Under the pieces are notes generated by a model. The model saw only the letters and a program-made list of their open reading frames with translations, was not told the DNA's origin and did not search any database. From an uncultured archaeon (GTDB lineage Archaea > Asgardarchaeota > Jordiarchaeia > Jordiarchaeales > Jordiarchaeaceae): a DNA stretch of 32,000 nucleotides. Both the position numbers and the translations under genes were made by a program. Shown here piece after piece: positions 1 to 2,552 of this stretch; positions within the stretch are counted from its first letter, which is position 1; each line of letters starts with the position of its first letter. The stretch spans positions 1-32,000 of the forward strand of contig CAZECW010000060.1 in the NCBI GenBank assembly GCA_964510585.1. The letters are read 5' to 3'.

Positions 1-62
1 ATGGTCAGTAAAACATAAATGGGTAGAATGAGAATAACAGTTTGGAGTGTTGCCTCTATCAT
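1..62 (-). CDS. Possible 5' end of a membrane protein running off the left edge (MIEATLQTVILILPIYVLLT...)
   Basis: Manual translation. ATG at 62-60 on the minus strand, a weak AGTGA RBS-like motif 4-5 nt upstream, and 20 mostly hydrophobic codons open to the window edge. Confidence 0.3.
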   Translation of the reverse strand, partial: MIEATLQTVILILPIYVLLT

Positions 63-102
63 TTTTATCACTATTATTACTTACGATGAAGCAACACTCC
101 AA
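42..102. repeat. Perfect 12-bp inverted repeat (TTGGAGTGTTGC ... GCAACACTCCAA), 37-nt spacer
   Basis: Arms at 42-53 and 91-102 are exact reverse complements. On the minus-strand RNA the stem extends about 6 bp further with one bulge. Confidence 0.75.
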
Positions 103-391
103 CCTTTCGGTTAAAATTGCACAAAAGACTTTTTACGCCCAAACAATTTTATGGCTAAAATTTTTAAAAATGAGTGTAAGTAGAAGGCCCACTTTTGAAA
201 AGGGAGTAGACTCCTAATTTTAAATATTTACATGAGGTACAAACTTTCCAAGTTAAAACTAACCAGAGAAATTAGGAAAAATTCACACGGCCAAATAACA
301 AAATATACACATCTCACCTCGCATTTGAATGTCTGAATCAAAAAAATTATAATTGTAAAAATGCTAGATATAAACAAACATAGAGAGGTAA

Positions 392-643
392 GTGCAGGTG
401 CAGGGAGCCAATTCCGACAGATTTATAATAACCGAGGTCAAGGTGATAGGTACTTGGGATTGGACTAGGAGTGCAAAGTGTATCGTGTGTAATTTAAAAG
501 TGAAAGAGGAAGAAAGGGTAGTTTATTGTCCTTTTTGCGGGCTCCCAGCACATCGCGACCATCTTTTGGAGTGGTTGAAGATAAAGGGCTTCTGCCCTAA
601 TTGTGGAAAACCACTAAACATTAGAGAAGTTAGAAAATGGTGA
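392..643 (+). CDS. Small RING-finger protein (putative E3 ligase) of the ubiquitin cluster
   Basis: Eight Zn ligands in the pattern C-x2-C-x12-C-x2-C-x4-H-x2-H-x10-C-x2-C with RING Trp (EWLK). GAGGT RBS before GTG 392/398. Lies 7 nt upstream of ubiquitin. Confidence 0.85.
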   Translation: MQVQGANSDRFIITEVKVIGTWDWTRSAKCIVCNLKVKEEERVVYCPFCGLPAHRDHLLEWLKIKGFCPNCGKPLNIREVRKW

Positions 644-650
644 GAACGTA

Positions 651-884
651 ATGATAGTGAAGATAGTTTCTGCAATTGGTGGCGAAGTTTTAGAGTTTGA
701 TGTAAGTGAAGACACCGAAATAGAGACTCTAAAGTCTCAGGTAGCTAAGAAAAAAAGAGTTCCCGCTTCCACTCTAATCTTAGTATATAGAGGGCAACAA
801 CTTGAAGATGGTACAACATTAGGGAAAGCCGGCGTCCAACCCTATGACAAACTATACCTAGTTACACGCACAGAGGGAGGGTAA
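651..884 (+). CDS. Eukaryote-like ubiquitin homologue, encoded with mature C-terminal diglycine
   Basis: 77 aa. LILVYRGQQLEDGTTL matches ubiquitin QRLIFAGKQLEDGRTL. Ends LVTRTEGG-stop. Confidence 0.93.
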   Translation: MIVKIVSAIGGEVLEFDVSEDTEIETLKSQVAKKKRVPASTLILVYRGQQLEDGTTLGKAGVQPYDKLYLVTRTEGG

Positions 885-1057: not shown

Positions 1058-1516
1058 ATACTATCAGATGAGGAATATGAGTCAAGACTAGTACAAGAAG
1101 CTAAAATAATGGAAGAAGAGGAACCATCCTTTCATCCAGTTGATGGCGACCTAAGAAGGTGGGCTGGATTTATTATAGGCACGGGAATATACGATGGAGG
1201 AGTATTTGAGATAGAGATAATACTTCCCAGAAAATTCCCCTACGAACCTCCAAAAGTAATTTGGAAAACGAACATTTGGCATCCCAACATATTTCAAAAA
1301 AATGTGTGTGTAAATATTCTTGGCAAGGACTGGCTACCCACTATGAGTATGGCAGGCGTTGTGGAGACTTTAAGGAATCTTCTTAATTATCCAAATCCTA
1401 ACTCTCCCCTCAATACGGAAGCAGCCAGACAAATGAATAGGAATCTAGAAGAATTCAGTAAGACCGCAAAAGAATACGTTAAAAAGTATGCTACTTGGGA
1501 CCGTCTCAAAAAGTAA
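1058..1516 (+). CDS. Ubiquitin-conjugating enzyme E2 (UBC fold); true start probably upstream of the tracked ATG 1109
   Basis: YDGGVFEIEIILPRKFPYEPPKV, WHPNI...VC (HPN motif and catalytic Cys), PNPNSPLN. The frame is open from 1031 and encodes helix 1 (ILSDEEYESRLVQEAKI) before ATG 1109. Start at ATA 1058 is inferred. Confidence 0.9.
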   Translation: MLSDEEYESRLVQEAKIMEEEEPSFHPVDGDLRRWAGFIIGTGIYDGGVFEIEIILPRKFPYEPPKVIWKTNIWHPNIFQKNVCVNILGKDWLPTMSMAGVVETLRNLLNYPNPNSPLNTEAARQMNRNLEEFSKTAKEYVKKYATWDRLKK

Positions 1517-1559
1517 TCCTTTTTTACCGCCGTACCTTACTTTTTGTGAGGAATCAACC

Positions 1560-2552
1560 TTGGAAAAAGTTGAAGGTAGGTATCATCGACAGGAAATACT
1601 TGAAGGGTGGGATCAGGGGAAAATACAGCAATCCACAGTACTCATAGCAGGAGTTGGCGCATTAGGTTCGATGGTCGCAGTTTTCCTATCATTAATGGGT
1701 ATAGGAAAATTAATACTGATAGATATGGATACAATTGAATTATCTAATCTCAATCGCCAGCTTTTATTTACTGAAAAAGATATTGGTGAATTTAAAGCCA
1801 GAATAGCCGCACAAAAACTTAGAGAGATTAATCCGAATATCCACATTGTAGATCTGAGTAAAAATTTGACCGAAGTCCCCCGTAAATACTTCGAGGAGAG
1901 TGACGTAATTGTAGACGGACTTGATACCTTCGAGGCTAGACGCTGGCTGAACTCATTATGTGTTGGTTTAAAAAAACCTCTAGTGCACGGGGGGATGTAT
2001 GGATGGTACGGCAACGTTCAGGTCATAATACCCTACAGGACCCCCTGCCTTGAATGTCAGCCTCTTCTCCCGCGTGAAAGATTCCAAAAATCGTGTACAC
2101 CCCCGGGAAGGAAGAGGGAAAATGTTGAACCTCCAAAGTTTCCCGGAGTTTCAACAATTAGCGCTGTCCTCAGTGGCATTCAAGCGCAAGAAACCATCAA
2201 AGTATTGCTGGATTTACCGACGCTAATTGACAATTACCTATTCTATGATGGATTAAGCCAAAGCTTCACCACAATCAAACTCGAAAGGAACCCTAAATGC
2301 ATCATCTGTAGTGACGAATACAGACTTGAAGGAATAGAATATGCAATTGACAAAAAAGAAACTATTCGAGAACTGAAAAACCGCCTTACAGCGACTCTAG
2401 GGTTAGTTGCTCCTATTAGGGTTATCCACAAAACAAGGTTTGTTGAAGACGATACAAAAATTGAAGATATGGACCTTGCCTCGGGAGATCTACTTTTCGT
2501 ATATGACAAATCTCTAGGAAAACCTCTGAAACTGAGAGCCAAAATATCATAG
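1560..2552 (+). CDS. Ubiquitin-activating enzyme E1 (ThiF/MoeB adenylation domain plus C-terminal ubiquitin-fold domain)
   Basis: RYHRQ, GVGALG, DMDTIELSNLNRQ, Zn pairs CLEC and CIIC, candidate catalytic Cys (QKSCT), and a ~75-aa beta-grasp-like tail. TTG 1560 follows a GTGAGG RBS and is preferred over ATG 1488, which overlaps E2. Confidence 0.9.
   Translation: MEKVEGRYHRQEILEGWDQGKIQQSTVLIAGVGALGSMVAVFLSLMGIGKLILIDMDTIELSNLNRQLLFTEKDIGEFKARIAAQKLREINPNIHIVDLSKNLTEVPRKYFEESDVIVDGLDTFEARRWLNSLCVGLKKPLVHGGMYGWYGNVQVIIPYRTPCLECQPLLPRERFQKSCTPPGRKRENVEPPKFPGVSTISAVLSGIQAQETIKVLLDLPTLIDNYLFYDGLSQSFTTIKLERNPKCIICSDEYRLEGIEYAIDKKETIRELKNRLTATLGLVAPIRVIHKTRFVEDDTKIEDMDLASGDLLFVYDKSLGKPLKLRAKIS

Follow-up and report, generated by a model that had tools for sequence, protein, structure and literature searches.

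The RING gene and its operon

This study concerns a small RING finger E3 gene (srfp), the conserved arm that precedes the zinc finger of its product, and a divergently transcribed coiled-coil gene, here called X, on whose product the arm may dock. The srfp gene lies at positions 392-643 of a 32,000-nucleotide stretch of DNA from an uncultured archaeon. This stretch, the window, covers the initial 32 kb of contig C60 in an Asgard genome of 3.78 Mb that is 96% complete. The nearest protein matches of the window are named Candidatus Freyarchaeota and Jordarchaeaceae. Genomes are designated by G numbers (G000 is the genome that contains the window), loci by L numbers and Asgard families by f numbers. 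Starting from base 392, four genes follow one another on the same strand in the order RING, ubiquitin, E2 and E1, with the RING gene at the head. The order is kept in relatives, and srfp orthologues that are 72-76% identical are named Freyarchaeota/Jordarchaeaceae. The features of the locus are listed below, with gene X given in the coordinates of its own contig.

1..391, no strand: shared divergent promoter region, with gene X on the far side, across an assembly break
392..643, + strand: small RING finger E3 (srfp), 83 amino acids (aa), first gene of the operon; GTG start; Prok-RING_1 32.1 bits against a cut-off of 29.1; zf-RING_2 27.0 bits
416..463, + strand: conserved N-terminal arm, residues 9-24, DRFIITEVKVIGTWDW
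479..604, + strand: RING cross-brace core, C30-x2-C33-x12-C46-x2-C49-x4-H54-x2-H57-x10-C68-x2-C71, read from the sequence
651..884, + strand: ubiquitin, 77 aa, GG end; PF00240, 2.3e-15
1109..1516, + strand: E2 (UBC fold), 135 aa counted from the first ATG; PF00179 (UQ_con), 6.1e-33
1488..2552, + strand: E1-like enzyme (ThiF fold) with a weak C-terminal ubiquitin-like domain; PF00899, 5.8e-64
G000:C168:19717-20172, - strand: gene X, an open reading frame (ORF) of 151 aa plus stop codon, in the same genome at the end of contig C168

By its sequence, the 392-643 product is an srfp-type RING E3 of the Asgard (Freyarchaeia/Jordarchaeia) ubiquitin cascade. Translation confirmed the 83-aa ORF, the N-terminal string and the H-RD-H-LLEWLK-IKGF-CP-N-C lobe described in an initial annotation of the window. 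The protein reads ...DRFIITEVKVIGTWDWTRSAKC... ahead of the first CxxC. Prok-RING_1 was its best Pfam family, with zf-RING_2 next, and was matched by 17/18 members of a set of arm-bearing homologues. These 18 sequences were also made into a family profile, A2, which was compared with all PDB sequences using HMMER. The best solved relatives of the core were RNF24 (7e-8), EL5 and Arkadia/RNF165. The eight zinc ligands are C30, C33, C46, C49, H54, H57, C68 and C71. Ligands 3 and 4 form a CxxC knuckle in place of the usual C-x-H, and Leu51 falls at the ligand-4 position in the HMMER alignment to RNF24. AlphaFold2 modeled the core with a predicted local distance difference test (pLDDT) score of ∼90. 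When the RING model was compared with the PDB using Foldseek, generic RING fingers led the list. RBX1 chains appeared from rank 5, with full-length but high root-mean-square-deviation alignments that do not discriminate.

A characterized homologue is the srfp of Caldiarchaeum subterraneum, which acts as an E3 in vitro (PMC5654768). The substitutions I30Q, W58A and R69A impair that protein, and I30 and W58 are E2-contact residues (PMC5654768). In the 83-aa protein I31, W61 and K73, a basic residue that follows the last zinc ligand, are positioned like I30, W58 and R69, as judged by motif position rather than by a computed alignment. A Helarchaeial homologue is also E3-active in vitro (bioRxiv 10.1101/2023.07.25.550441). 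E3 activity has been demonstrated for these homologues only.

RING-like fingers are abundant in G000, with 18 Prok-RING_1-like matches at E<=1 and 5 srfp-profile matches at E<=1e-6. In certain relatives the number of strong srfp-profile matches rises to as many as 18 per genome, and many of the matched proteins are 200-1700 aa long. The ubiquitin-like domain of the E1-like protein occupies residues 283-338 (window 2334-2501; PF00240, E 0.0037) and recalls one noted for archaeal E1-like enzymes in PMC5654768. Just 3' of the E1 gene, on the - strand at 2679-2837, is a 52-aa ORF with two CxxC pairs that is zinc-ribbon-like and has weak SprT/DUF7560 matches.

The N-terminal arm and the coiled-coil neighbor X

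The initial annotation proposed that RF-x10-WxW, which precedes the RING core, be checked for conservation among orthologues. W22, like the zinc ligands, was invariant in the 18 sequences, down to 34% identity. R10, F11 and G20 were nearly invariant, and position 24 was W or F. The spacing is not fixed, since RF lies one residue nearer to WxW in Loki-type orthologues. The N-motif was present in each RING adjoining X at 18 named Frey-, Jord-, Hermod- and Atabeyarchaeial loci. To compare with related fingers, 155 RING instances were taken from the 150 best representatives of 1.84 billion proteins. W-x-[WFY] occurred just upstream of the first Cys in 10/155, nearly all of them short proteins, while the remaining 145/155 had nearly the same core without the arm. 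AlphaFold2 modeled residues 1-23 as coil (pLDDT 58-74). The arm fits a docking role because it is conserved like the zinc ligands, is predicted to be unfolded alone, and is confined to genomes that contain X. In this respect the protein is not a bare generic RING.

Gene X lies directly upstream of the RING gene and is divergently transcribed from the opposite strand in 7/7 relative loci inspected. Its products are homologous, and in each of them a long helix comes after an N-terminal segment that is highly conserved. The consensus of the segment is K-V-K-I-Q-I-x2-I-K-T-P-x-G-x-V-P-T-V-x-S-L-K. AlphaFold2 predicted one helix from residue 25 to 150 in X, with the N-terminal 24 residues, which are the most conserved, unfolded. 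Searches of X against Pfam, the PDB (using an N-domain profile) and the ESM Atlas returned only coiled-coil noise. Clusters of ubiquitin, RING E3, UEV-Vps23 and the uncharacterized asCOG005522 have been described in Asgard archaea (bioRxiv 10.1101/2023.07.25.550441). From its position, its size and the absence of a Pfam match, X is probably asCOG005522. The same preprint reports an HHpred likeness of asCOG005522 to the Vip3 N-terminal coiled coil.

X and the RING gene are neighbors in G000 too and are split only by an assembly break, since the relative contig L037 (98% identical) joins the end of C168 to the window, which it matches from about base 145. L037 has no counterpart for roughly the initial 145 bases of the window or the final 100 bases of C168, although it matches on either side. 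These unmatched ends probably reflect a break in the assembly, or else a short insertion specific to the strain, within the divergent promoter region. Upstream of X in Frey/Jord relatives (L015:1789-7160, L018:2223-7129, G000:C168) are several genes that resemble eukaryotic signature genes, among them those for ARPC4-like and IFT52-GIFT-like proteins. A 593-aa protein with faint adaptor mu-homology/CLIPPER matches is also encoded there (L015, L018, G000:C168).

The X N-domain and the RING N-motif, the latter as a profile that extends to just past the first CxxC, were scanned in a phylum-wide sample of 301 Asgard genomes. The X N-domain was found in 95/301 genomes and the RING N-motif in 48/301. 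X was present in 46/48 genomes with the motif. The exceptions were one 80%-complete genome and one spurious partial match of 13 residues, and removal of the latter leaves 47 genuine motif genomes. Families without X (f5, f7, f9, f14 and f23; 191 genomes) were also without the motif. The N-terminal coding ends of the two genes are 144-551 bp apart in 35/47 motif genomes and 1.1-1.6 kb apart in 4 more, so that RING and X lie within 1.7 kb in 39/47. The genes are on different contigs in 7/47, three of which have the RING at a contig edge, and 1/47 has no X. In the named genome records, 18/20 X loci with enough upstream flank have an arm-bearing RING 264-1727 bp away.

Adjacency is kept through three gene orders: divergent, RING then X, and X then RING. 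In family f27 (L034:4700-5784, G291:C8) the RING and X genes form a co-directional lone pair, RING first, 27 bp apart. The RING has 136 aa and a longer N-terminus (…QIGSWSW…), and the X has 215 aa. The f27 pair is flanked by a 1313-aa helicase-like gene and by transcription-regulator-like genes, and no ubiquitin, E1, E2 or ESCRT gene is nearby. X precedes the RING in family f21 (L035), with a 38 bp overlap. A paralogous pair occurs in G000 itself, where an AAA ATPase with an X-type N-terminus is divergent from a 74-aa RING starting KYITLTKRFVGKWKWNC. The paralogous pair is also found in four genus relatives in which a second pair was detected. Its location is as follows.

G000:C157:35394-40075 (L029:13395-18076): second ubiquitin-type cluster, contig C157, with a 463-aa AAA ATPase that has an X-like N-segment and a 74-aa RING that has the same N-arm

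Also encoded in the second cluster are two RING fusions, one with an M48 peptidase (240 aa) and one with E2/UEV (293 aa), and a second E1 of the ThiF type (383 aa); an SMC-like gene adjoins the cluster.

We favor the reading that the RING arm is a docking element, most likely for X, and assign it a probability of roughly 45% from the gene context and the models. Residues 9-24 would form an extended hydrophobic arm that is not folded against the RING and ties the catalytic finger to another protein, most likely X. X itself would be a single helix of ∼125 residues, able to form a coiled coil, that follows a conserved strand-like segment of ∼20 residues unfolded alone. The N-terminal segments of the two proteins would fold together, perhaps as an intermolecular β-sheet. 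The argument for mutual folding is that the RING arm and the X segment are each the most conserved part, are each unfolded alone, lie side by side in three gene orders and were duplicated together. X would then serve as an oligomerizing scaffold or adaptor, and RING-X would be a two-subunit ligase whose mode of action parallels that of RBX1 bound to a cullin, or of APC11 bound to APC2. Common descent of RING-X and RBX1-cullin is unsupported, and X is not a cullin. The suggestion in the initial annotation that this is not a generic RING thus holds for the conserved arm and its probable docking, but not for the cullin scaffold, since the candidate X is a coiled coil rather than a cullin-like fold.

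Several points weigh against docking on X. Because related genomes are not independent, counting genomes exaggerates the support. Linkage is absent from the sister family f2, where 288 kb separate the two genes in G006. In family f19 (L067:3461-5016, G066:C1) X lies between a 255-aa E1-like gene, which it overlaps by 32 bp, and a 103-aa ubiquitin-like gene, in an operon without RING or E2. Judged by this context, X is part of the ubiquitin system also when there is no RING. In Borrarchaeia, according to the preprint, a JAB protease stands where the RING would be (bioRxiv 10.1101/2023.07.25.550441). The link runs one way, and since X also occurs without an srfp RING, its N-segment cannot exist only to hold the RING and must have another role too. 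The shared neighborhood may reflect a common pathway rather than contact, and RING-X binding is a prediction from gene context and models. Finally, the only experiment on the arm, using surface plasmon resonance (SPR), points to the UEV domain of UEV-Vps23, with a dissociation constant (KD) of just 0.26 mM (bioRxiv 10.1101/2023.07.25.550441). When X (151 aa, alignment A4) and the RING (83 aa, alignment A2) were predicted as a 1:1 complex, the score was 0.22 where the mark is 0.32; the prediction was run without controls and speaks neither for nor against binding.

Alternative roles for the arm

The arm itself is not new. The conserved N-terminal region of Asgard RING E3s has been described as an 'N-loop' that aids UEV-Vps23 binding, and a ColabFold model of the region was a loop (bioRxiv 10.1101/2023.07.25.550441). 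This answers in part whether the feature had been reported before, a question that the initial annotation left open. The RBX1 likeness is absent from the preprint, which does not mention RBX1, cullin or APC11, and a literature search for Rbx1 and Asgard returned a general review only. The arm is therefore already described, while an RBX1-like reading of it was not found in the literature. New here are the co-occurrence of the arm with X, as a RING-X module, and a quantified, modest RBX1 likeness.

In the preprint's own reading, the arm is a loop that recognizes a substrate, namely the UEV domain of UEV-Vps23, an ESCRT-I protein (bioRxiv 10.1101/2023.07.25.550441). It has the sole direct measurement in its favor. 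With Helarchaeial proteins, the KD for the UEV domain measured by SPR was 2.57e-4 M for the full-length E3 and 8.14e-3 M after deletion of residues 1-19, and UEV-Vps23 was ubiquitylated in vitro by the cognate E1/E2/RING (bioRxiv 10.1101/2023.07.25.550441). Such KD values, in the sub-millimolar to millimolar range, come close to the limit for specific binding, and a literature search found no peer-reviewed version of the preprint. In Loki-, Hermod- and Atabey-type relatives the operon lies beside UEV-Vps23/Vps28/ESCRT-II/Vps4 genes. Vps23-core and Vps28 genes are encoded in G000 as well, but on contig C4, so that UEV-Vps23 and ESCRT do not adjoin the RING. UEV-Vps23 is reported as unclustered in Jordarchaeia (bioRxiv 10.1101/2023.07.25.550441). 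Against a UEV target, the RING in this lineage is unlinked from UEV-Vps23 yet still beside X, the f27 pair stands alone with no ESCRT or ubiquitin genes nearby, and the paralogous arm-bearing RING is paired with an X-type AAA ATPase and no UEV protein. We consider UEV recognition rather unlikely as the role of the arm, and less likely than docking on X. Should the arm read UEV-Vps23 after all, it would be a specificity element joining ubiquitylation to ESCRT-I.

In many RING E3s, such as RNF4, BIRC7 and MDM2/MDMX, short segments on the flanks of the finger mediate dimerization or E2~Ub priming. With these precedents, the arm might serve the RING itself, in homodimerization, E2~Ub priming or contact with the E2 backside, and both its RBX1 likeness and its linkage to X would be incidental. 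Such a role would suit the hydrophobic character of the arm, its unfolded state in the monomer model and the 2:1 binding models fitted in the preprint. Left unexplained are the confinement of the arm to genomes with X and the 145/155 related RINGs that manage without it on nearly the same core. On balance a role within the RING is improbable.

Resemblance to RBX1 and APC11

The N-terminal strand of RBX1 and APC11 inserts into the cullin C-terminal domain, and W35 of RBX1 is the pivot of RING rotation. The initial annotation aligned the arm with an RBX1 string, and raised the possibility that the two are homologous, which would make the protein a prokaryotic precursor of cullin-RING/APC ligases, with a cullin-like scaffold as its partner. 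The RBX1 string matches residues 20-42 of the 108-aa chain 1u6g_B letter for letter, and the numbering R21/F22/W33/W35 is correct. R10/F11/W22/W24 align without gaps onto these four residues, and the hydrophobic positions -3, -6 and -9 from the first Trp coincide with those of RBX1. The register is lost after WxW, where one residue is dropped before the first Cys (6 here vs 7 in RBX1), and before it the distance from RF varies among orthologues. The C-terminal lobe does have the spacing of RBX1, as claimed, but the pattern H-x2-[HC]-x3-W-L-x5-C-P-x-C is generic to RING-H2 fingers, and RNF24 and EL5 align better than RBX1.

The likeness was then measured with profiles. Profile A2 aligned ordinary RINGs from position ∼22-27 onward, while RBX2 and RBX1 alone were aligned through the arm, from positions 5-6 (profile 6-73 onto RBX2 27-106). 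The E values were 0.06 for RBX2 and 0.16 for RBX1, compared with 7e-8 for RNF24. The score rose from 15.0 bits for a RING-only chain of RBX2 to 16.0 for the full-length protein, a gain of ∼1 bit from the arm. An anchored position-specific scoring matrix of the arm scored the RBX1 strand at 27.4. True family members score 21.5-38, whereas none of 141 N-terminal flanks of other RINGs exceeded 17.6. Shuffled RBX1 strands reached 27.4 in 0.8% of cases (p 0.008). An arm that is unfolded alone is also what would be expected of an inserted strand.

Searches in the other direction did not retrieve the relationship. An arm-only profile (A3, 27 positions) returned no RBX1, RBX2 or APC11 from all PDB sequences at E<=10, and its sole match was an unrelated LPXTG protein (E 0.56). 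Whole-genome scans with zf-rbx1 (PF12678) and zf-ANAPC11 (PF12861) at E<=10 did not return the 392-643 gene, and neither family was among the best 25 of the 70 Pfam matches of the RING protein. The HMM search proposed in the initial annotation went against it. Among the 18 family members, zf-rbx1 matched 12, with a best E value of 0.0029 that is below its cut-off, and zf-ANAPC11 was not among the 25 families matched by most of them. The zinc layout differs as well, C46-x2-C49-x4-H54-x2-H57 here against C-x-H-x2-H-x2-C in the RING-box, and the first two knuckles are only 12 residues apart, with no third-zinc insert.

A scaffold was sought with the same approach. The Cullin profile PF00888, in a sequence-level search, had no match at E<=10 in G000. 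At E<=0.01 it also found nothing in the other five genomes from this genus, one of which is closed, and it passed the cut-off in 0/301 genomes of the phylum-wide sample. Scans with Cullin_Nedd8 (PF10557) and ANAPC2 (PF08672) gave noise only, with no APC2 or cullin WH-B domain.

Judged by sequence, the resemblance to RBX1 is real at the level of the motif, where either homology or convergence could account for it. Membership of the RBX1/APC11 family is not established and fails on profile scores and zinc-ligand layout. The full reading of the initial annotation, homology with the cullin-inserting strand together with pairing to a cullin-like scaffold, is in our view improbable. Even less probable is the combination in which the arm is the archaeal ancestor of the RBX1/APC11 scaffold-inserting strand and inserts into the N-segment of X, as a primordial scaffold and RING ligase that predated cullins and whose scaffold eukaryotes later exchanged.

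The origin of the eukaryotic multi-subunit RING ligases (cullin-RING and APC/C) is an open question, for which the ancestral state is at present best approached through Asgard ubiquitin operons. If the arm docks on X, Asgard archaea had already split catalysis, by the RING, from scaffolding or targeting by a second subunit, a division otherwise thought to be eukaryotic. Without RBX1 homology, the RING-X module still offers a concrete two-protein experiment and a testable function for an unannotated family.

Comparison with known systems

Among solved sequences and folds, the nearest to the core are the eukaryotic RING-H2 fingers of RNF24, EL5-ATL, Arkadia-RNF165 and RNF38 (E 7e-8 to 1e-4). They share the W-L-x5-CP-x-C lobe with the 83-aa protein, and differ from it in having no N-terminal arm and in being domains of larger proteins. 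The C. subterraneum srfp (Hennell James et al. 2017, PMC5654768; Pfam Prok-RING_1, PF14446) is likewise a small single-domain RING-H2-like finger, encoded in an operon with ubiquitin, E2 and E1. It has an Ile after the first Cys, a Trp in the helix and, as described in PMC5654768, an extra Cys for the usual His at ligand 4. The gene order of its cluster is different; in the window the RING comes first and the cluster is without an Rpn11/JAB gene.

The 'N-loop' RING E3 of the preprint belongs to the same protein family; it has this conserved N-terminal region, there predicted to be a loop, and its coiled-coil neighbor is probably X. In that cluster UEV-Vps23 is adjacent, whereas here it is the coiled-coil gene alone that stays beside the RING. 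The loop was assigned there to UEV binding, with no discussion of RBX1, of the Trp pair or of RING-asCOG005522 pairing.

RBX1, RBX2 and APC11 differ from the 83-aa protein in having CxH rather than CxxC at ligands 3 and 4 and in their third zinc site, which is missing here. Their scaffolds, the cullins and APC2, were not detected in this genome or in the 301 Asgard genomes, and the candidate partner here is a coiled coil. They are alike in being small RING subunits of ∼80-110 aa, in the C-lobe spacing H-x2-[HC]-x10-C-x2-[CD], and, at the level of a motif, in a hydrophobic N-terminal strand whose [RK]-F and W-x-W come shortly ahead of the first zinc knuckle, an arm predicted not to fold without its partner.

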